This document shows positions 2,130-57,394 of a stretch of DNA of 64,000 bases, piece by piece. Each line of letters begins with the position of its first letter. Position 1 is the stretch's first letter. The notes beneath the pieces are model-generated. The model worked only from the letters and a program-made list of their open reading frames with translations. It did no database searches and was not told the origin of the DNA. The position numbers and the translations under genes were made by a program. This DNA is from a virus. The stretch spans positions 15,622 to 79,621 of the IMG/VR virus record IMGVR_UViG_3300023179_000073. One strand, given 5' to 3'.

Positions 2130-2291
2130 TTATTTAGATTTTTTTGTTGTTTCTTTTGTCAAACCCAAAATCATAGAATTGAGTTTATTAATCTCAATTT
2201 GCAATTTTAATGATTCTAATTCTGTATCAGACAGTTTTTGTTTATAAAATGTTATTAACTGAATTAGTTCATTTTTTTCTAAATTTTCCAT
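2130..2291 (-). CDS. Small coiled-coil hypothetical protein (53 aa)
   Basis: Manual translation MENLEKNELIQLITFYKQKLSDTELESLKLQIEINKL; G-rich SD upstream; fills the gap exactly. Confidence 0.7.
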   Translation of the reverse strand: MENLEKNELIQLITFYKQKLSDTELESLKLQIEINKLNSMILGLTKETTKKSK

Positions 2292-2297
2292 TACCCC

Positions 2298-2666
2298 CTA
2301 CTTTCTTAGATCAAATGCGGTTCCTTGCCAAACCTTCTCTAATTTTTTCTTTTCTCTTTCCACAATTGCACGGCTCCATGAAAAACCTGCATCTCCACCC
2401 CAAGCATCCCACATAATTCTTCCATTAGATGGAAACTCTGGACCATCATAAAAGCCTTTGCCTTTTTTATCTACTTCATGACGAGAAAAAAATGAATACA
2501 TACGTTTAACAACTGAAAGAGACATTGATCTTCCAGCAACTATATCTGTTGCACGACCCCAACCGACTGGAGTACCTGCTCCTTTAGCCTTACCATCTGC
2601 TTTCCATTTTAAAGCACGACGAGCAGCAGCCTTCATACCAGATGTTGGTGTATATGTATCAGCCAT
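2298..2666 (-). CDS. Basic phage head-associated-type protein with C-terminal scaffold-like motif
   Basis: GTPVGWGRA, RMYSFFSRH and AWGGDAG module; ends EKVWQGTAFDLRK. Confidence 0.7.
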   Translation of the reverse strand: MADTYTPTSGMKAAARRALKWKADGKAKGAGTPVGWGRATDIVAGRSMSLSVVKRMYSFFSRHEVDKKGKGFYDGPEFPSNGRIMWDAWGGDAGFSWSRAIVEREKKKLEKVWQGTAFDLRK

Positions 2667-2766
2667 TTTCTTCTATCCTTTTTCTTTCATAAGATTTACC
2701 CCAAAAAAATGATCCAATCATTAATAATCCTATTACTAGTGAATGCCAGAAATAAAACATGCTCAT
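2659..2766 (-). CDS. Single-TM microprotein (35 aa)
   Basis: MSMFYFWHSLVIGLLMIGSFFWGKSYERKRIEENG; ATGA overlap with the upstream ORF. Confidence 0.55.
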   Translation of the reverse strand: MSMFYFWHSLVIGLLMIGSFFWGKSYERKRIEENG

Positions 2767-2870
2767 TTTCCACCCTTTTTCTTTTGTTGTTTAGCAACAC
2801 GCTTTTCTTTAAGAGTCATCTTTGGCTCTTTCTTTTTATTAACATTACCCTTTTGTTCTTTATTTGCCAC
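2763..2870 (-). CDS. Lys-rich microprotein (35 aa)
   Basis: GTG start, MANKEQKGNVNKKKEPKMTLKEKRVAKQQKKKGGK; G-rich SD; overlaps both neighbours. Confidence 0.55.
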   Translation of the reverse strand: MANKEQKGNVNKKKEPKMTLKEKRVAKQQKKKGGK

Positions 2871-3018
2871 TTACTGCCCCCTTTTTTATTTTTGGATATG
2901 GACCAAGATCTGCCTTAATTGTCCCGTCTTTTCTTAAACGAACAATTCTTCCATCTTTTATTTGTAATGGATTAAATGCATAGTTTTTAAAAAAAGATCC
3001 AGAAGATTTTTTAGACAT
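2860..3018 (-). CDS. Basic microprotein (52 aa)
   Basis: MSKKSSGSFFKNYAFNPLQIKDGRIVRLRKDGTIKADLGPYPK; TAATG overlap with the upstream gene. Confidence 0.6.
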   Translation of the reverse strand: MSKKSSGSFFKNYAFNPLQIKDGRIVRLRKDGTIKADLGPYPKIKKGAVSGK

Positions 3019-3872
3019 TATTTTTCCAATGTCAGAGGATTAAACGCTCCGCTCCAAATACTTTTTTCTGTAGTTTGAGATGCTGACTTATATGTTCCAC
3101 CACGGCGTTTGTATTCTTGAACTACCCAAGAATTAGCAACTGCAGACGGGTAAACATCAAACTTATCTTTTGCTGCTTGCACAACTCTTGCATAAAGTTT
3201 TGGATTTGCTGGCTCACTTCCACCACGTCTTGGTTTAATAAACTCATCATAGTTAGGAGTTTTTGCTTTATCAATTTCTTCTGATTTTTTAACTGGAACG
3301 CAATTAGGAACCATTCGTCCATTTTTTTCTTTCATTCCTTGTTGTTCATATCCTACCCAACATGCCTTTTCCATGTTATCCCATTTATCTTCTTCTTCAT
3401 TGTCTGAATAATAACTTTTGCTTATTATGTTTGTTTTTATTGTTTCTATAACTTTATCCATGCCAATATTTGATTCTAAAGATGGCATTGCCATTACTTC
3501 AGATGCTTTTATACCAACAAAATATTCTGTTTCTTCTAATCCGCCTTCTTCCATTTCAAAAAGTTGAATTAATAAAGCAGGTTCTTCTGCTGATGCAGCA
3601 AGCGCATATTCTGATCCAGGAAAACCAAGCATTCCTTCTGTCATTACATGGACAACACGACCAACATAAACTTCATCATCATTCGGCGCCATAACCATGT
3701 CGCCTTCTTTTACCATTGCCTTGCCAATATTTCCTTCGCTAATATTAATAGCATAAATTTGACGAGCAGCAGCGCCTTTAGTTTTATGGCAACCCATTAC
3801 TGTTCCATCGTCTTTTAAAGCAGGGTAGCCTGAGCATCCATATGACCCTTTAGCACCTACACGATATGGCAT
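3018..3872 (-). CDS. Multi-module putative internal head protein
   Basis: Short modules (GCHKTKGAAARQ; CWVGYEQQGMKEKNGRMVPNCVP; YPSAVANSWVVQEYKRRGGTY) separated by xxK-S/A sites; ends EKSIWSGAF; SD AGGAGG. Confidence 0.7.
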   Translation of the reverse strand: MPYRVGAKGSYGCSGYPALKDDGTVMGCHKTKGAAARQIYAINISEGNIGKAMVKEGDMVMAPNDDEVYVGRVVHVMTEGMLGFPGSEYALAASAEEPALLIQLFEMEEGGLEETEYFVGIKASEVMAMPSLESNIGMDKVIETIKTNIISKSYYSDNEEEDKWDNMEKACWVGYEQQGMKEKNGRMVPNCVPVKKSEEIDKAKTPNYDEFIKPRRGGSEPANPKLYARVVQAAKDKFDVYPSAVANSWVVQEYKRRGGTYKSASQTTEKSIWSGAFNPLTLEK

Positions 3873-4298: not shown

Positions 4299-4761
4299 TT
4301 CTTAACTCCTTTGATTTTATTACATCGTTAATTGCGTTTTGTTTTAACTTTTTATATGTTCCAGTTTCAAAATCTAAATCCTGCAACTTTCTCATATGTG
4401 GGCAAAAAATGCGACCCTGCTTCATACATTCTAAATGAAATGGGTGAAGATCTGAATAAACCCATCGGTCGTTTTTATTTACTAAAATTAAATTGCAAGT
4501 ATACCACCTAACAACAATTTCTTTATCATTAATTTTTATACCACAATACGGGCACAAATTGTTTTTATATACAAGGTCTTCATTTTTTTCATTTAGACCA
4601 AGATGACCTAAAGATTGAAAACGATCTTCGGATTGCCAAGGAATTGGAACCTTTTTTGCTAAGTCTTTTCTGTTTGGTGTTGCAAATGGTCTTGGTAATC
4701 CCGTTGTGTGCACGTCTTTTTCTTGCCATTTACTAGCAGCAGCAAAATATTTATTTTTCAT
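4264..4761 (-). CDS. Hypothetical Zn-binding protein
   Basis: CPYC and HxxHxEC...CPH motifs. Confidence 0.65.
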   Translation of the reverse strand: MKNKYFAAASKWQEKDVHTTGLPRPFATPNRKDLAKKVPIPWQSEDRFQSLGHLGLNEKNEDLVYKNNLCPYCGIKINDKEIVVRWYTCNLILVNKNDRWVYSDLHPFHLECMKQGRIFCPHMRKLQDLDFETGTYKKLKQNAINDVIKSKELRNEKIIKKDIKS

Positions 4762-5002
4762 TAATAAAATTTTCTAATTCTTTTTTTGTTTTTGTTCCAG
4801 AAATACGGGAAATCTCTTTTTCATTTTCAATTAAAATAAATGTTGGAATTGACTTTACTTCAAAATTTTTAACAAGCAATTGCTCGTAATCAGCATCTAT
4901 TATTTGAAACTGAAAACCTTCTTTTTTCATTTCTTCAACAATTGGTCGTGTTTTTTTGCACGGAGCACACCAATCTGCTGTAAAATAAAAAACAGTTTTC
5001 AT
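4751..5002 (-). CDS. Thioredoxin
   Basis: FTADWCAPC active site and cis-Pro motif SIPTF. Confidence 0.92.
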   Translation of the reverse strand: MKTVFYFTADWCAPCKKTRPIVEEMKKEGFQFQIIDADYEQLLVKNFEVKSIPTFILIENEKEISRISGTKTKKELENFINEK

Positions 5003-10039: not shown

Positions 10040-10861
10040 TTATTTTATTTTTTTGGGAAGTTGATGATCTTTAAATTTATTTCCTTCTATATCTTCTCCA
10101 TTATAGTATACACGATCATAAACGGTAGGAGTTTTTTTGTTATTAATTTCTCTATGATTAGCATGTTTTTCTACAACTTGTATTTCTTGATTTACTACAT
10201 TTTCATTAAAAATTTCATAAGCATTTTTTAATTCAAAAGATTCACAAAAATATCTAGGAATTGGAATTAAACCAACTATTGGTGTGTTTTTTTGTATAAC
10301 TATTTCTACATTTTTTAAATCTACTTTTATGTTTAAAGTAAAAGTAAATCTAAGATTGTCAGACTCTACTACACCAGTCATTGGACTTAATCCTGGAGTT
10401 GGAAAATTTGGTGGAGCAATTGTCATTAAATTAATCCCTGGTGGAGTTTTTAGGGTCAACGGAAAATATATTGTTAAAATTCCATTTCCAAATGTTGAAG
10501 ACGGCATAATAATGTTTTTGCCTTCATAAATTTTAGCATCTTCTCCAAACTTAATAGACAAATCTTCTAAATTGTTATTTCCGTTCCAAAAAACACTAAA
10601 AGTGTATGGCAAACTAAAAACAAAGCCTTGCATATTACCAATTGCTAACGGCAAACATTTATAAAAATGAGAAGTAAACCAATCTCTTTTATGAGTATTT
10701 TTAAGTGGTTTTAAAAATAATTCAATATCTTTTAAATTAAAAGGCTCTATTCCTTTACTTGAAGCAACTGGGAAAAACGCAATGGTATTATCTGGAACAA
10801 CCAATCCATCTTTTTGATTAATTATCATTGTTTTTTTATCTAACATATATAAATCATACAC
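10040..10861 (-). CDS. DUF6065-like protein
   Basis: RDWF...YKCLPLAIGNMQGF, PPN, GVVESD, TFTLN pattern recalled for this family. Confidence 0.7.
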   Translation of the reverse strand: MYDLYMLDKKTMIINQKDGLVVPDNTIAFFPVASSKGIEPFNLKDIELFLKPLKNTHKRDWFTSHFYKCLPLAIGNMQGFVFSLPYTFSVFWNGNNNLEDLSIKFGEDAKIYEGKNIIMPSSTFGNGILTIYFPLTLKTPPGINLMTIAPPNFPTPGLSPMTGVVESDNLRFTFTLNIKVDLKNVEIVIQKNTPIVGLIPIPRYFCESFELKNAYEIFNENVVNQEIQVVEKHANHREINNKKTPTVYDRVYYNGEDIEGNKFKDHQLPKKIK

Positions 10862-10885
10862 CTTTTACCTTCTTTTGTCAAATAA

Positions 10886-12310
10886 CTATCTAATAATTTT
10901 AGTATTATATTGTTTTTCCCACAAAAAAATATCACTTTCATCATTTAATAATGGTTGCCCTTTAATATTTAAACTAGTATTAAGTAAAATAGGAACTCCA
11001 GATATTTTATAAAATTTTTTAAGAACACTCCAAAGTCCTAAATGTTGATTTTTATTTACAGTTTGAACCCTAGATGTTCCATCAACATGCACAACAGATG
11101 GTATTTTTTCTGGTTGTAAACACTTTACTGCGTATTGCATATATGAAGAATTAAAATTCATGTCAAACCATTTGTCGGCATATTCCTCCATAACAACTGG
11201 CGCAAATGGCCTAAATAATTCTCTTTGTTTAATTAAATTAACCTTGTCTTTAATATTTGGATCTCTTGGGTCTGCCAAAATGCTTCTATTTCCCAATGCT
11301 CTAGGTCCATATTCTGCTTTTCCAGTTGCTACCGCTGCAACTTTATTATTTAATAATTCTTTTATAATTTCTTCTACAGGATACTTTCCACCTAAATCAT
11401 ACCCAAGATATGGAGTTTGCCAATCCAAATGTTTTCCATAAAGGGCTGCTGCAGCACCAAGAGATGATCCAGCATCTCCTGGATTAGGCATAATCCAAAT
11501 ATCATCAAAAATATCCCACAACATTGTATTAGCAGAACAATTTAATGCACATCCACCCATAAAAACTAAATTTTTTTTATTAGTTATTTTGTATGCCATA
11601 TTCATAAAATCAATTAATCTTTGTTCATATATTAATTGAACAGATGCAGCAATATCAAAACGATCTTGTTCTGTAATTTGAACATTCCAATCAACTATTC
11701 CTTTATGAAAATTATATTTTTGTCTGTTATGTTTTGGAAAATATTCATTAATTTTTTTATAATATTTTGACCAGTCTCCGTATCCAGCCATTCCCATCAT
11801 AATATACTCTTCTTGGTTTGGCATAAGTCCAATCAATTGCGTAAAGGCTGAATAAAACAATCCAAAACTAACTGGATAATTTTTTTTATATTTTAATTTA
11901 ATCTTATTGTTTTCACCTATCCAAATTGTAGAGGTATTGTATTCTCCAATAGCATCTAGTACTACAATAACAGCATTATCAAATTTACTAGTGTAATACC
12001 CTGCTGCTGCGTGAGAATAGTGATGACTAAAAGATTTTCTTGGAATATTATCTATATTAAACCTTGGTTTCCATTCCCCAGATCCACCTCTTAAAATCAG
12101 TCTAGAAGCCTTTAGAAGGGGTTTTTCGTAGTAGGCTATGTAATCTGGTCTACCATACTGCAAAGCATCTTTTATTAAACTATCATTGATATACCAATCA
12201 TTTTTTTTCTTACTGTATCTTTCTGCATGCCCCGCAAAAAGAATTTTGTTATCTTTAATCAATGAAATTGATGCATCATGAGAAGTTTCATTTATGCCAA
12301 GAATTATCAT
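10886..12310 (-). CDS. Carbamoyltransferase (NodU/CmcH/TobZ family)
   Basis: HDAS, HHYSHAAAG, DAIGE, GGCALNC, EYGPRALGNRS, FRPFAP, HVDGTSRVQTV, LNTSLN. Confidence 0.95.
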   Translation of the reverse strand: MIILGINETSHDASISLIKDNKILFAGHAERYSKKKNDWYINDSLIKDALQYGRPDYIAYYEKPLLKASRLILRGGSGEWKPRFNIDNIPRKSFSHHYSHAAAGYYTSKFDNAVIVVLDAIGEYNTSTIWIGENNKIKLKYKKNYPVSFGLFYSAFTQLIGLMPNQEEYIMMGMAGYGDWSKYYKKINEYFPKHNRQKYNFHKGIVDWNVQITEQDRFDIAASVQLIYEQRLIDFMNMAYKITNKKNLVFMGGCALNCSANTMLWDIFDDIWIMPNPGDAGSSLGAAAALYGKHLDWQTPYLGYDLGGKYPVEEIIKELLNNKVAAVATGKAEYGPRALGNRSILADPRDPNIKDKVNLIKQRELFRPFAPVVMEEYADKWFDMNFNSSYMQYAVKCLQPEKIPSVVHVDGTSRVQTVNKNQHLGLWSVLKKFYKISGVPILLNTSLNIKGQPLLNDESDIFLWEKQYNTKIIR

Positions 12311-12335: not shown

Positions 12336-12860
12336 TCATATACTTACTACATCAACTGGACCCATGCATGATGGACTAAACTTAATAGCACAACTTACTG
12401 CCCCTACAACTCTTTTACGAAGATCCTTAGATTTTTCGGTAGCATGTAAATATCCATAGGCGTATTCAGCCCCTGATCCCATTGCTAAATAATCTAAATT
12501 ATATTTAGATAAAGACATATCAACAGCATTGTGCTCATATATTTGACCTTTAACACAAATTATTAAGCCAAGATCAGCCTCTTTGCCAGTATCAACCCAC
12601 CAGTCATTATAAAAATTTTTAAGTTGTTTAATAAATTTAGTTTGCATAAACTTATCTATGTCTTTTATATCTGGAACATATGGATTAAAGTTATATCTAA
12701 TTCTTTCTCCATCTAATGCCCCTGCGTATCCAAGTAAATATGGACCAAGTTTCCAAACCTTGGGTGCTATTAAAGATAAAATTGTATTATCATCAGATGC
12801 ACCACGGTCACCAGCCATATAAACCTTACCCTCGTGACGTGCTACAGCCAAAACAGTCAT
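12336..12860 (-). CDS. Ntn-hydrolase, HslV/proteasome-beta-like peptidase
   Basis: N-terminal M-T nucleophile, MAGD, K, GYAG and AMGSGAEYAYG. Confidence 0.85.
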   Translation of the reverse strand: MTVLAVARHEGKVYMAGDRGASDDNTILSLIAPKVWKLGPYLLGYAGALDGERIRYNFNPYVPDIKDIDKFMQTKFIKQLKNFYNDWWVDTGKEADLGLIICVKGQIYEHNAVDMSLSKYNLDYLAMGSGAEYAYGYLHATEKSKDLRKRVVGAVSCAIKFSPSCMGPVDVVSI

Positions 12861-52841: not shown

Positions 52842-53987
52842 TTATGAATCAGCGCTATCTGAGTCAACATAAGCAACTGCATCTAGTTCTTCCCATGCAA
52901 TACCAAAGCGTACGAATACTGTATATTCTACAGTGTCCTTCTTTGGCTTGTATTCACGGTTTACAGTGATGTCTCTCTGGAAGCCCCATACACGGTTCTG
53001 AGGGAATGTTAAATCAACATAACCTGCAGGATAGTAAGGAACTTCTAGAACGTCCACTCCAAGAACACGAGTTGTACGTGCATCTCCGAATGTTTGTGCG
53101 CCACCGTCTAGGTATGCTTGACGGTTTGCTTGAGTGCTACCAATGCGATCTGAGAACGCTGATGAAATAGCATCTGCAAGTGTACCGTTGTTGCGAACAA
53201 TGCCAGCAAATGCATCAGTACCTGCGTAGAACTTAAGGTTTGACTTAAGTGCACGGTACTTACGAGGCATTGCTAATAGCAAGCCTTGCATTACTGAAGT
53301 TGTATAGTTGTTGTCTGCTACTGTTGCAGCATATTCGTGAGCATCGTTTCCGACTGTTCCACGAGTTTGCTTTACGAAGCCTGACATAATAGATAAGAAG
53401 TCTCCAGTTGCGCCATCGCCGTTAATAGCAAGGTCTTCAATATCGTTACCGAATGCATTTGTCATCAATCGTACTAAACGATCTTCTAATGCACCGCCTT
53501 CAATATTATCTTCTAGTGACTCTGTGCTTACTTCCCAATCAAGACGAATCTTCTTAGTTGTAAGTTCTACTTTAGTAAATGTTGCGCCAGTGTTGGTGTA
53601 GTTTGGGCTACCCTGTGCTGCTGCACGAATAACACGCTCTCCAACGTTGACCTTCTCAATTTCCATGGTGTTTGCTCTCATGGTAACTCTACGGCCATCC
53701 TTAGCGAGAACTGTTGCATCCCACACGTAGTCAATAAAACGACGTGCTTGTTCAGGATTTAGGATACCACCAGCGGCTCCTGTTGGATTTACAGCGTTGG
53801 CACCAGTTGTTACACCAAAGCCTGCTGTTGCTGTGTTACCAAGTTGTGATCCTACAGACGCTCCTGCAGAGTCTAAACCTGTTGCACTTCCAACACCACC
53901 AGATACCAATGCACCTGCTGAGTTAATTTCAGCGCCTGCACTTGCTCCTGGATAGTTTTTTTCTAGATTTGTGTTTTGTTCCGACAT
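52842..53987 (-). CDS. Major capsid protein (HK97 fold)
   Basis: GGILNPEQARRFID, LEDNIEG, EDLAINGD; SD GGAGGTG; follows protease/scaffold. Confidence 0.93.
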   Translation of the reverse strand: MSEQNTNLEKNYPGASAGAEINSAGALVSGGVGSATGLDSAGASVGSQLGNTATAGFGVTTGANAVNPTGAAGGILNPEQARRFIDYVWDATVLAKDGRRVTMRANTMEIEKVNVGERVIRAAAQGSPNYTNTGATFTKVELTTKKIRLDWEVSTESLEDNIEGGALEDRLVRLMTNAFGNDIEDLAINGDGATGDFLSIMSGFVKQTRGTVGNDAHEYAATVADNNYTTSVMQGLLLAMPRKYRALKSNLKFYAGTDAFAGIVRNNGTLADAISSAFSDRIGSTQANRQAYLDGGAQTFGDARTTRVLGVDVLEVPYYPAGYVDLTFPQNRVWGFQRDITVNREYKPKKDTVEYTVFVRFGIAWEELDAVAYVDSDSADS

Positions 53988-54014
53988 ATTGTTCACCTCC
54001 TAGTGATATATACC

Positions 54015-54599
54015 TTAGTTAAATAGGTCGGTTGATGTGAGGAAACGACCGCCCCATAGGGATTTCTGAACCACTTGTGGTGATTCCTGCACGATCTCGC
54101 CTAGATCGCCAGACTTGCGGAAAGCGGTGTCTTTTTCTACAAGATCTACTCGCTTGCCAAACTCATTAAAGTTACCCTTGATATTGTTAACATCTGCTGT
54201 TACTGCATCAAGAGACTTTGTTACTGCTGCTACCTGCTCATTTAGAGTCTTAATAGTTGCAGCAAGATCGCCAAAGGCATTAGTAAGAGAAGTATTAATT
54301 TCTGAAACTGCTTTAGCAACTTCTTCTTTAACCTCTGCAACTGGATCAACCACTGCAGTTTGTACTTTCTCTACTTCTACTGCTGCTTCTGCAACAGAAG
54401 AATTTGCACTAGCATCATCTGATTTAGCAACAGCAAGTTCTTCAACTACTGGTGCTTCTTCAGCGACTGCAGCGGTTTCTGTTGCTTCTGCAACAACTTC
54501 TGTTGCTGCTTCTGCATTTACCTCTGCTGACTGTGCCTCTGGAGCAACCTCTGCATTTTCAACTACAGCGTCTACGGCTGTTTCTGTTGATTCTGTCAT
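54015..54599 (-). CDS. Nested in-frame scaffold protein
   Basis: Internal SD AAGGAGGT (54607-54614) before in-frame ATG 54599. Confidence 0.7.
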   Translation of the reverse strand: MTESTETAVDAVVENAEVAPEAQSAEVNAEAATEVVAEATETAAVAEEAPVVEELAVAKSDDASANSSVAEAAVEVEKVQTAVVDPVAEVKEEVAKAVSEINTSLTNAFGDLAATIKTLNEQVAAVTKSLDAVTADVNNIKGNFNEFGKRVDLVEKDTAFRKSGDLGEIVQESPQVVQKSLWGGRFLTSTDLFN

Positions 54600-55358
54600 T
54601 GGATTTACCTCCTTAGTAATCTTAATTGTACTAATGCCTTTAGCACTATCAACTAAGAATTTTATCATTTCTACGTTATTCTTATCGCTTTTTTCTACGA
54701 AACCTATATTTTGCATTTTGTTACCATTAATTGGACTAATTGCTGACTCTGAATCAGATAGTGTTACGATACCACTTTCTGCATCCCAGAATACATTTTC
54801 AATTTCTGCTTTTGACAAATATCCGCTTACAACATTTTGTCCATTTACTTTTTCAATAGAAAGAATATTTGCAAATTGATTTGCTGGATTATCAACTAAA
54901 GATAACTCATGTAATTCGTAATTCTTAATTACACGAACTGTTTTATCCATTTTCTCATCATAAGCATCATCCCAAGTTTTAATGCTTCCACCAATTGAAA
55001 AACCAGTATATGTTCCATCTAAAACCTTTTCCCATGCATCTTGTGCACCTTTAGAAACATATGCAGAAACATAAACTCCGCTATAAAATTTTTTGTCATT
55101 TGGGTCAAAATATTTGTCTTCTTTAAAAGAAACAATCTTTCCTACTGCTGAAGGCTGATGCATTTCACGAAGATTGCCACGGAAATTCTTAAATGCCTCT
55201 ATACTTGACTCTGTGGTCACGATATCATTTTGACGATCAACGTTATCAAGCGTTGCAAATCCTGACACCATACGGCGTTCAACGTCTATTTTTCCGATAG
55301 GCATTGATAGGCGAACATTGTCACCTTCAGTTACCCAATGAGCCTTGTTTGTTAACAT
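54015..55358 (-). CDS. Prohead protease fused to scaffold
   Basis: GFATLDNVD, REMH, GFSIGG, ELSLVDNPAN, followed by an acidic Ala/Glu-rich coiled coil. Confidence 0.92.
   Translation of the reverse strand: MLTNKAHWVTEGDNVRLSMPIGKIDVERRMVSGFATLDNVDRQNDIVTTESSIEAFKNFRGNLREMHQPSAVGKIVSFKEDKYFDPNDKKFYSGVYVSAYVSKGAQDAWEKVLDGTYTGFSIGGSIKTWDDAYDEKMDKTVRVIKNYELHELSLVDNPANQFANILSIEKVNGQNVVSGYLSKAEIENVFWDAESGIVTLSDSESAISPINGNKMQNIGFVEKSDKNNVEMIKFLVDSAKGISTIKITKEVNPMTESTETAVDAVVENAEVAPEAQSAEVNAEAATEVVAEATETAAVAEEAPVVEELAVAKSDDASANSSVAEAAVEVEKVQTAVVDPVAEVKEEVAKAVSEINTSLTNAFGDLAATIKTLNEQVAAVTKSLDAVTADVNNIKGNFNEFGKRVDLVEKDTAFRKSGDLGEIVQESPQVVQKSLWGGRFLTSTDLFN
54625..54652 (-). promoter_or_regulatory. Candidate internal promoter TTGATA-N16-TACAAT for scaffold and capsid
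   Basis: Lies inside the protease gene just upstream of the internal SD. Confidence 0.5.
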
Positions 55359-55398: not shown

Positions 55399-57003
55399 CT
55401 ATTGAGACGCTCTACCCTCACCTTGTGGATTACGTCCAGATATTGTTGTAGTTGAGTCAGAGTTATTATTTGTTCTTTCTGAATCTCTTTGACGAGTCCC
55501 TGCCAAATTTGCCCTAGCATCTGTTGCTTGTCTTGGAGACATAATAAATGGATCATCTCCATCTGCTCTTTGTGGCAAGTCTAATTTTTCACGAGCCTCA
55601 TTTGGCGTCATTACTTGTGTTTTTACATAACGTTCAAGGATTTGAGACTGAGCAATTTCATCTGTTAATGTTAATTCATTAAACCTTAACTCAAGAATAT
55701 CTGTTTTTTCTTTAATAATTTTATTGACAATTTTCTCAAGATGTCTCTGGGCTGGGCGAGAAACCTGCTCTTTAAAGGTTCTATCTTGTGATAATGCTGC
55801 TGCAATACCTCCAGAATCAGCCCCTCCAAGTTTAGACATAGGAACTTGATGAGCAATTAAAATATCATCACGATTTTGTTTACGATACTCCTTAAATGAT
55901 CCATCCTGTATGCCATTTTCAATTGGCTCCATCTTAAATTCAACCTTGTTTGAATCTGTATCTCCAGGAAGTGGGATATACAGAGTTCTGTGAGATTGAG
56001 CCTTAAGGCCAGTTTGTAAAAATCTAAACATCTTATCTTCGGCATCCCCTGATAGTTTTGCACCCTTTAAGGTAACTACATATCGTGGAACAGCCTTATT
56101 TTCAAAATAGTCAATATTATATTGTGAAGCAAGTTGATCTCCAATAAGAGATGGCATTGCTGCAATAATATCTGGAATACCATAAAAAGTATTTAATGGT
56201 GAGTATTCTTTAAGATGAATAATCTCATTTGGTCTTGGATCTGTTCCAATTGGGTTTGGGTTCTTAGCCCCAAAGTTTCTAAAGTAAACTAACTTTTGAC
56301 CAATAATTTGAACAAAACCATCACGAAGACGACGAACACGAACTGTAGTTGCTGGGATATGACCCACATACCCAATATCTCCAGATACTGTCCTACCTAC
56401 TTCAATAAATCCATTGCCTGTTGCTTGAAGGTCTGTATAAACCTTTTCCATTGTTTTTGTAAAACTATCATCATCATTAAGGCCTTCTAGCCAGTCACGC
56501 AACTCAATCTTTGCTCTTTCAATACGACGACGTGCACGACCAACGGCTTCTTGATCTTCACTTGTTTCAAACCTTAACATTGTTCTATCTGTTACATCAA
56601 AACGATAGCCAAGCCCAACTACGTTTTCTACTTTGGCATCAATAGCAGCATGATTGGCAAATGATGTGTCATAAAAGTTTGCTAATTCATACATATTATA
56701 TGGAGGAGTAATTACGTCAAATAGCCCGTAACCATTTCTGTATACCGTGCCAGGATTGATTTGTTTTGATCCCGCATCTACGCCAGACGGAGTTGTGTTT
56801 GCTGCATTTAAATATGCTTGATTTGTTTCTAATCCTGTTGATTTTGTAATATTGCGACTTGTTCTACGACGAAAATTTTGATCAAGTCCAAAATAATCCT
56901 TTAATTGATCCCAAGATTTATTAAAAGGATCTTGAGATTTAAATATACTCTCTTCACGCTCTTGTGTATTGAGTCCTATGCGAACATATTCTTCATCAGC
57001 CAT
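55399..57003 (-). CDS. Portal protein
   Basis: TGNGFIEV, NEIIH, FYGIP, YFENKAVP, MTPNEAREKL. Confidence 0.93.
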   Translation of the reverse strand: MADEEYVRIGLNTQEREESIFKSQDPFNKSWDQLKDYFGLDQNFRRRTSRNITKSTGLETNQAYLNAANTTPSGVDAGSKQINPGTVYRNGYGLFDVITPPYNMYELANFYDTSFANHAAIDAKVENVVGLGYRFDVTDRTMLRFETSEDQEAVGRARRRIERAKIELRDWLEGLNDDDSFTKTMEKVYTDLQATGNGFIEVGRTVSGDIGYVGHIPATTVRVRRLRDGFVQIIGQKLVYFRNFGAKNPNPIGTDPRPNEIIHLKEYSPLNTFYGIPDIIAAMPSLIGDQLASQYNIDYFENKAVPRYVVTLKGAKLSGDAEDKMFRFLQTGLKAQSHRTLYIPLPGDTDSNKVEFKMEPIENGIQDGSFKEYRKQNRDDILIAHQVPMSKLGGADSGGIAAALSQDRTFKEQVSRPAQRHLEKIVNKIIKEKTDILELRFNELTLTDEIAQSQILERYVKTQVMTPNEAREKLDLPQRADGDDPFIMSPRQATDARANLAGTRQRDSERTNNNSDSTTTISGRNPQGEGRASQ

Positions 57004-57394
57004 TTTCGTATGCATCTCTTCCGTGTGTATTTAATGTTTGCTGAGCAGCATGCCAAGCACCCAAATCGTTCATTGAAGGAATTAAACCTTCTTTTAATCT
57101 TTCTTTTTGTTCAGAATATTCCTCTTCGCTAACTCTGGTTAGTCCAGGAACAAAAACAGCCTCACCTAAACCATCATCTCCATAATAAACAGCCATTTTT
57201 TTTAATTCAGAAATCTTTGAAATATCTCCACGATCTGATGGAATATTCAGAACTGAGCCATTTCCGTCAGAAAACCACTTGCCATTTGATTTCTTATATA
57301 CGTACAAACCCCAGTCATACTGCTTATCTATTACTTTACGACGCACATTTTGTACATAAGGTTTACCAGTTTTTGGATTTATTAGTGATTCCAT
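56996..57394 (-). CDS. Hypothetical protein upstream of portal
   Basis: Leaderless ATG 7 nt after TGCTATACT (57402-57410). Confidence 0.75.
   Translation of the reverse strand: MESLINPKTGKPYVQNVRRKVIDKQYDWGLYVYKKSNGKWFSDGNGSVLNIPSDRGDISKISELKKMAVYYGDDGLGEAVFVPGLTRVSEEEYSEQKERLKEGLIPSMNDLGAWHAAQQTLNTHGRDAYENG

Follow-up and report, generated by a model that had tools for sequence, protein, structure and literature searches.

Few natural signals that bring a protein into a phage head have been defined, and those of phages T4 and P1 are N-terminal leaders. In phage HK97 there is no separate scaffold, the delta domain of the capsid protein playing that role; the C-terminal part of its S78-type prohead protease reportedly gets the protease enclosed in the prohead, as Duda, Oh and Hendrix are said to have described in 2013, and we know of no report of other phage proteins that share this enclosure signal. 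In encapsulins, cargo is docked on the inner face of an HK97-fold shell by cargo-loading peptides, which are short, flexible and usually C-terminal. The present analysis concerns a C-terminal tail of 13-17 residues, with the consensus K-[S]-[LIV]-W-x-G-x-F, that is carried by the prohead protease-scaffold and by two accessory proteins, here termed A and B, of the virus record IMGVR_UViG_3300023179_000073. Bases 15,622-79,621 of this 79,621-base record were analyzed as one stretch (the 64-kb window, to which the coordinates below refer unless stated otherwise; all features located by them lie on the minus strand). On the basis of sequence comparison, we regard it as rather probable that the tail is a scaffold-mimicking capsid-loading tag, accompanied by probable processing at lysine sites.

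A scaffold tail shared with a second protein has been described for phage 80alpha and the satellite SaPI1. The 80alpha scaffold and SaPI1 CpmB have a motif in common within their last 16 to 21 residues, which bind the N-arm of the coat protein alike, and these C-terminal "helix-and-hook" domains, which contain the RIIK motif, are swappable (PMC5644958). As in the virus analyzed here, a short peptide from the scaffold C-terminus recurs on a second protein that is different in other respects. In the 80alpha case, however, the copy belongs to a satellite's rival scaffold that alters capsid size, whereas here it is found on the phage's own small, modular, cargo-like proteins. The shared motif also differs, being RIIK in the former and W-x-G-x-F without RIIK in the latter, in which the scaffold is fused to an S78 protease. 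By analogy, the 80alpha/CpmB pair would be the nearest mechanistic precedent, representing the same kind of mechanism but not the same family.

The capsid targeting sequence of the T4 internal proteins and the signal of P1 DarB are portable and N-terminal and can load foreign cargo, and the T4 sequence is removed by the prohead protease (PMC9024508). These signals resemble the tail proposed here in being short, portable peptides that would address non-structural proteins to the prohead interior. They differ from it in their N-terminal position (the T4 leader has ~10 residues) and have not been described as copies of the coat-binding end of a scaffold. Here the peptide stands at the C-terminus of the scaffold, A and most B proteins, it matches the scaffold tail, and it belongs to an HK97-type S78 protease-scaffold system of actinophages. 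In form, the encapsulin peptides are closest; A and B likewise end in a short, disordered C-terminal peptide behind a flexible linker (in A, residues 265-284, with a predicted local distance difference test score, pLDDT, below 50). Encapsulins lack a portal, scaffold, protease and DNA and have another peptide consensus, whereas the present tail is shared with the scaffold of a genuine phage prohead (genes for the portal, protease-scaffold, major capsid protein and tail are all present). A continuum between cargo and scaffold has been argued for HK97-fold shells (PMC13669383). In the MuF polymorphic toxins and ejection proteins of temperate phages (PMC5576092), variable effector modules likewise reach the capsid by way of a head-assembly module; those systems rely on covalent fusion to MuF, whereas A and B are free-standing proteins without a MuF domain and carry only the 13-17-residue tail. 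No description of a phage that places the C-terminal tail of its scaffold on its own accessory proteins was found in a literature search of incomplete coverage, and this absence is therefore weak evidence.

The three tail-bearing proteins

The original prediction stated that the protease-scaffold and two proteins encoded far from it end in nearly the same peptide. All three open reading frames (ORFs) were found on the minus strand at the predicted positions, with the ends described. The prohead protease-scaffold fusion (447 aa; 54015..55358) matched the Pfam families Peptidase_S78_2 and Peptidase_S78 (PF14550, PF04586) above cutoff as well as phrog_9427, head maturation protease (E 3e-115). 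It comprises an N-terminal S78 protease, an Ala/Glu/Val-rich coiled-coil scaffold part and a conserved C-terminal island; this layout, together with the gene order portal, protease-scaffold, major capsid protein (MCP), is that of an S78 prohead protease-scaffold fusion. Its tail, Q-K-S-L-W-G-G-R-F-L-T-S-T-D-L-F-N (54018..54068), would be the template of the tag.

Protein A (284 aa; 3018..3872) consists of four small folded modules on disordered linkers: an N-terminal Cys/His module, a beta-barrel, a CW-x-GY...VPNCVP hairpin and a two-helix DUF5872 module, the last with a Pfam score of 27.0 bits, just under the cutoff of 27.5. In the AlphaFold2 model the folded blocks extend over residues ~7-50, 55-130, 170-195 and 220-260, and pLDDT falls below 50 at residues 133-168, 196-218 and 265-284. 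The last of these regions includes the tail, E-K-S-I-W-S-G-A-F-N-P-L-T-L-E-K (3021..3068). Protein B (122 aa; 2298..2666) is a single all-helical domain (phrog_2859, E 5e-33) followed by the tail E-K-V-W-Q-G-T-A-F-D-L-R-K (2301..2339). AlphaFold2 predicted five helices for B with a pLDDT of 90.4, the mean confidence dropping to 57 over residues 111-120 and 45 over residues 121-122. Fold searches returned no convincing solved relative of B (best Foldseek E 2.9; best VIA-align Z 4.9) and show neither a new fold nor a function. Because the low-confidence tails of A and B stand behind well-folded domains, they would be expected to behave as exposed linear peptides.

The strict motif K.?[LIVM]W.G.{1,2}F, searched as a regular expression in six frames, matched exactly three times in the window and in the whole 79,621-base genome. 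The matches (54042-54065, 3042-3065 and 2313-2336) lie 8, 7 and 4 residues before the stop codons of the protease-scaffold, A and B, respectively, and are thus C-terminal in each case. The claim that no other ORF carries the motif therefore stands, and the looser core [LIVM]W.G.{1,2}F is likewise confined to these three among the plausible genes. When composition-matched C-terminal 25-mers were drawn 20,000 times for the 104 putative genes, 19,897 draws gave no match, 103 gave one and none gave two or more, as compared with the three observed; the chance expectation is ~0.005 motif-bearing proteins per genome. The motif was defined after the three sequences had been seen, which is not decisive because the orthologs conserve the tail. 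At the DNA level, the three tails have only 8-13 of 27 bases in common and their Ser codon families differ. The likeness therefore lies at the protein level, and recent DNA duplication was ruled out as the source of the tails.

Several other proteins that match loose patterns were set aside. Zinc-ribbon (FmdB-like), WhiB and holin-like proteins carry unrelated motifs. A 152-aa fibre-like protein of relatives (L003 26-484; G001:C1:28720-29181), which starts M-A-T-x-x-K-D-F-x-V-K-x-G and ends [WYF]-D-G-G-x-x-x-D-N-F-N, was considered as a third bearer for its ending ...W-D-G-G-I-A-x-D-N-F-N. Orthologs have Y or F in place of its W, fibre proteins commonly end in a similar way, and this genome lacks the gene; the resemblance to the scaffold tail is probably a coincidence.

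Conservation of the tail during exchange of modules

The tail is conserved in orthologs: of the distinct C-termini from IMG/VR relatives, all 33 of the scaffold have it, as do 91 of 92 from the A family and 93 of 99 from the B family. The scaffold tails, from proteins of 56-96% overall identity, read K-S-[LI]-W-G-G-[RS]-F-L-x3-D-L-[FLY]-[NKA] with hardly any change. In the Streptomyces phages Blueeyedbeauty and Jay2Jay, ...K-W-G-G-[RH]-F-L...D-[LI]-x is kept at the end of a scaffold whose middle has diverged. The scaffold of a Rhodococcus phage has a different C-terminal end.

In 44 aligned orthologs of A, the W of the tail is invariant and both G(+2) and the terminal K occur in at least 90%. 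In the 91 conserved C-termini of the family, the W is accompanied by G(+2), by hydrophobic residues at both +4/+5 and near +10, and by a K at the very end. In 82 of these 91 W-bearing tails, 11 or 12 residues follow the W, as compared with 12 in the scaffold tail, and the hydrophobic positions +4/+5 and +10/+11 agree between the two. The tail stays last in A orthologs that have gained a Cys-rich insert or a "PDGSFPI...RRA..L....PEDW" module, as it does in those without the CW-x-GY module or DUF5872 (G002, G003 and L160, of which G002 and L160 have lost DUF5872). In two further relatives (L164, L166), the gene at the position of A encodes a DUF5824 protein with the same tail.

The profile of the B tail across 93 distinct orthologs is equally marked, with K(-2) in 97%, W in 100%, G(+2) in 89%, [ST](+3) in 99% and F(+5) in 99%. 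The pattern kept by 93 of the 99 C-termini is K(-2)-x-W-x-G-[ST]-[AP]-F-x-x-[RK]-K, and two relatives (L207, L217) carry a tandem double tail on B. The B domain itself is present in 3,432 cluster representatives. Among 150 of its representatives clustered at 50% identity, the regular expression flagged 26 W-type tails, ~22 of which were convincing by eye; these occur on unrelated architectures of 120-600 aa. The B homologs of PaBG, S-CBS4 and Vibrio phage 1.112.O, which have other head systems, are without the tail. Mimicry of the phage's own scaffold tail was also considered for Vibrio phage 1.112.O, S-CBS4 and DSL-LC01 and rejected, the ends of their B-domain proteins being unlike both the end of their own candidate head scaffold or protease and the W motif. 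A and B had been described as otherwise unrelated proteins, which does not hold in a deep sense, as they are neighbours that draw on one pool of shuffled small modules.

Candidate lysine cleavage sites

Sites of the form [ILVM]-x-K-[SA] are concentrated in A and the scaffold, with five sites in A (0.7 expected) and six in the scaffold (1.1 expected). The two proteins rank first and second among 104 proteins in this respect. The density of such sites per 100 aa is 1.41 in 61 scaffolds and 1.02 in 52 A orthologs, as compared with 0.22 in 694 other ORFs, a control set that was only roughly filtered; this amounts to a 5-6-fold enrichment. When the list of sites in A was read against the structural model, they fell at or near predicted module borders or in linkers. 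A candidate site stands directly before the tail in the scaffold (V-Q-K|S) and in A (T-E-K|S), and B has L-E-K-V at this place. The motif may be regarded as a candidate S78 cleavage code, and its enrichment is consistent with, and supports, common proteolytic processing of the scaffold and A. The third-ranking protein is one of 230 aa, encoded at genome positions 10542-11234.

Fusion of the same modules to head proteins in other viruses

Modules related to those of A and B are built covalently into head proteins in other viruses. In the annotated "major capsid proteins" of CRP-821 (Roseobacter, 974 aa) and S-CBS3 (Synechococcus, 836 aa), the B domain is the first module of a polyprotein, encoded right after the portal gene, with the order B domain, DUF5824-like module (in CRP-821), S78 protease and HK97 capsid. 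In the haloarchaeal virus HRTV-4 the B domain lies inside the portal-MuF fusion gp30, and in Vibrio phage 1.112.O it opens a 444-aa coiled-coil protein whose gene adjoins that of a putative portal. The optional "PDGSFPI" module of A is found in an 851-aa S78 protein of the Actinomycetia phage DSL-LC01 (L263 5500-8055), where it reads "PDGS[FY]PI...RR.IIRRAR.LG....PE.W"; some A orthologs have the same module just before the tail.

Among the 47 B-domain representatives of at least 450 aa, seven contain Peptidase_S78, seven Phage_Mu_F, three Phage_portal and two Phage_capsid, which together make up about a third. Other long representatives carry ADP-ribosyltransferase or Zeta-toxin domains, a co-occurrence that is the pattern of the MuF polymorphic toxins (PMC5576092). 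Fusion to head proteins in one lineage and a scaffold-like tail in another are what one would expect if a module can enter the prohead by either route. The fusions may thus be read as independent "Rosetta-stone" evidence, which supports the placement of such cargo modules inside heads.

Proposed capsid loading and alternative explanations

The proposed tag copies the extreme C-terminus of the scaffold, by which the scaffolds of other phages are bound to the inner coat-protein surface. During prohead assembly, A and B, through their flexibly attached tails, would take up a share of the docking sites of the scaffold and so become enclosed. The presumed docking partner is the MCP (384 aa; 52842..53996), which matched phrog_1623, virion structural protein (E 2e-72), and phrog_10, major head protein, and is encoded directly downstream of the scaffold gene; the portal protein (538 aa; 55399..57015; Pfam Phage_portal, E 3e-29; phrog_12) is the alternative partner. 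Once inside, A would be cut by the S78 prohead protease at [ILVM]-x-K|[SA], between its modules and just before the tail, as would the scaffold. The small modules would then remain as internal head proteins and may be ejected with the DNA.

Several observations weigh against this reading. A and B are encoded in a region of early or accessory-looking genes (WhiB, thioredoxin, nuclease), at a distance of ~50 kb from the head genes. The MCP has no [ILVM]-x-K-[SA] site, B likewise has none, and the site motif was defined after the fact. In the whole genomes of Blueeyedbeauty and Jay2Jay no second tagged protein was found, their matching scaffold tail notwithstanding; an alternate-frame ORF inside the portal gene and a small hydrophobic ORF were dismissed as candidates. 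The W motif is internal in several relatives, where it is followed by a coiled coil, a Tudor-like module or DUF5872, so that a strictly C-terminal docking mode does not fit all cases. The original prediction of a portable cargo-loading tag is thus upheld in so far as the tail is conserved, stays terminal while modules are swapped and has a low pLDDT in both A and B, and is weakened by the internal copies in some relatives.

The expectation that cargo tails covary with the scaffold tail of each phage was not borne out, because the scaffold tail shows no variation in the relatives compared. In some relatives the W-type tail of B is replaced by an F-type motif, ...[LIM]-F-x-[DNG]-F-G-x-D-[HY]-[TS]...[LIV]-F-[KR], and three genomes with this motif on B proteins (G011, G013, G014) still have a W-type scaffold tail. 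The F-type motif is terminal in some relatives and forms an inter-module linker in many others of the mosaic B-domain proteins, and at both ends it is similar to the corresponding end of the scaffold tail (K-[SA]-L-aromatic ... D-L-F-K). No scaffold was found on the contigs that encode B variants with a terminal F-type tail, these fragments being too short. Examples of the motif are found in L287-L292, L327-L344, L340 and G014:C1:82016-82462. Taken as a whole, the misfits point to a short linear motif for which a terminal position is usual but not obligatory, and its receptor may be the capsid protein, the portal, the protease or the scaffold.

A chance resemblance, or a compositional artefact of short C-termini, could be argued from the definition of the motif after sight of the three sequences and from the many spurious ORFs that match its loose versions. 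Such an account is difficult to reconcile with the null draws, not one of which reached two matches, with the retention of the key positions in ~90 distinct orthologs per family and across domain swaps, or with the tails on ~22 of 150 distant representatives; it is effectively refuted already by the conservation data, and we consider it highly improbable. The shared peptide could instead be a short linear motif that serves a function outside the virion, such as host-factor binding, localisation or turnover, or self-association of the three proteins in the cytoplasm. The accessory surroundings of A and B, remote from the head module, would suit a motif of this kind, as would the B homolog of PaBG, a protein with a putative DNA-binding annotation whose gene is surrounded by replication genes, and the failure of the F-type variant to track the scaffold. 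It leaves unexplained, however, why the only other bearer should be the scaffold, at an end conserved as far as the Streptomyces phages, and why the same modules are integral, covalently joined parts of head polyproteins in other phages. A function of the tail outside the virion therefore seems to us quite improbable.

The more serious competitor, though still an unlikely one, accepts that the tag is head-directed and assigns it a receptor other than the capsid protein, namely the portal, the protease domain (as a substrate-recognition element or exosite) or the scaffold coiled coil. A and B would then ride in on another partner or would merely be marked as protease substrates. The fusion of the B domain to portal and MuF in other viruses points in this direction, as do the candidate cleavage site directly before the tail in both the scaffold and A, the enrichment of such sites in both proteins, and the internal motif copies, which would be more natural for a protease or linker signal than for a hook that must be C-terminal. 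Set against these points, in the phages with separate scaffolds that have been studied (80alpha, P22) it is with its extreme C-terminus that the scaffold binds the coat. In addition, the motif is absent from the MCP and occurs only once per protein, and it is therefore not a general cleavage site.

Genome context and neighbouring genes

The record has a G+C content of 33%, and nearly all genes of the window are carried on the minus strand. They include genes for the portal, the S78 protease-scaffold, the HK97-type MCP, tail proteins, a terminase, a Pol III alpha-like polymerase, NrdJ and WhiB. IMG/VR contains hundreds of relatives of the protease-scaffold and hundreds of related contigs. The nearest cultured relatives of the protease-scaffold are Streptomyces phages (Stanwilliamsviridae), with ~55% identity over the protease domain, which marks the source virus, as judged from its proteins, as an uncultured actinophage. 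The phage collection yielded no cultured relative that encodes A or B. Ahead of the region matched by capsid profiles, the MCP carries ~70 additional N-terminal residues, an unusual extension in which Gly, Ala, Ser and Thr are abundant.

Two small ORFs adjoin the genes of A and B. The start codon of a 52-aa ORF (2860..3018) overlaps the stop codon of A, so that the two are translationally coupled, and an ORF of 44-55 aa stands at offset 0 from the stop of A in most of 130 relatives with an A-B pair. It has a conserved basic core, ...F-N-P-x-Q-I-K-[ND]-G-R-I-V-R-L-R-K-D-G..., and its N-terminus (...A-F-N-P-L-Q-I-K) echoes the end of the A tail. Just downstream of B lies a 53-aa coiled-coil ORF (2130..2291); in four relatives (P0002, P0073, P0079, P0095), B, the tail and the equivalent of this coiled coil form, in that order, one in-frame protein. 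A WhiB-like protein, a thioredoxin and a small look-alike of proteasome/HslV-type Ntn-hydrolases are encoded at 882-1163, 4751-5002 and 12336-12860, respectively. The same trio also occurs near a tagged protein in a distant relative (L372), at the one locus of which that was looked at no head genes were found.

Implications for actinophage heads

A broader proposal, which we advance tentatively and hold to be somewhat more doubtful than not, is that actinophages run a general natural capsid cargo system. In such a system, a 13-17-residue C-terminal copy of the scaffold tail and a Lys-specific prohead-protease code would load and then release shuffled small modules (the B domain, DUF5824, DUF5872, Tudor-like and Cys-rich modules), which would be injected with the DNA as host-takeover or anti-defence factors. 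In other phages, the same modules are hard-wired into protease-capsid or portal-MuF polyproteins. If this broader proposal is true, tag-mediated and fusion-mediated loading would be interchangeable evolutionary solutions, and phage scaffolds would be linked directly to cargo loading of the encapsulin style. The narrower reading, of a short tag that is no more than the docking tail of the scaffold, would already allow internal or ejected proteins of uncultured phages to be predicted by reading sequence, among related actinophages and for B-domain proteins numbering in the thousands. It would account for the occurrence of the same small modules both as free proteins and as parts of head-protein fusions, and it would provide a natural connection between phage scaffolds and the cargo peptides of encapsulins. 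Foreign proteins could be loaded into HK97-type capsids by means of so compact a tag.

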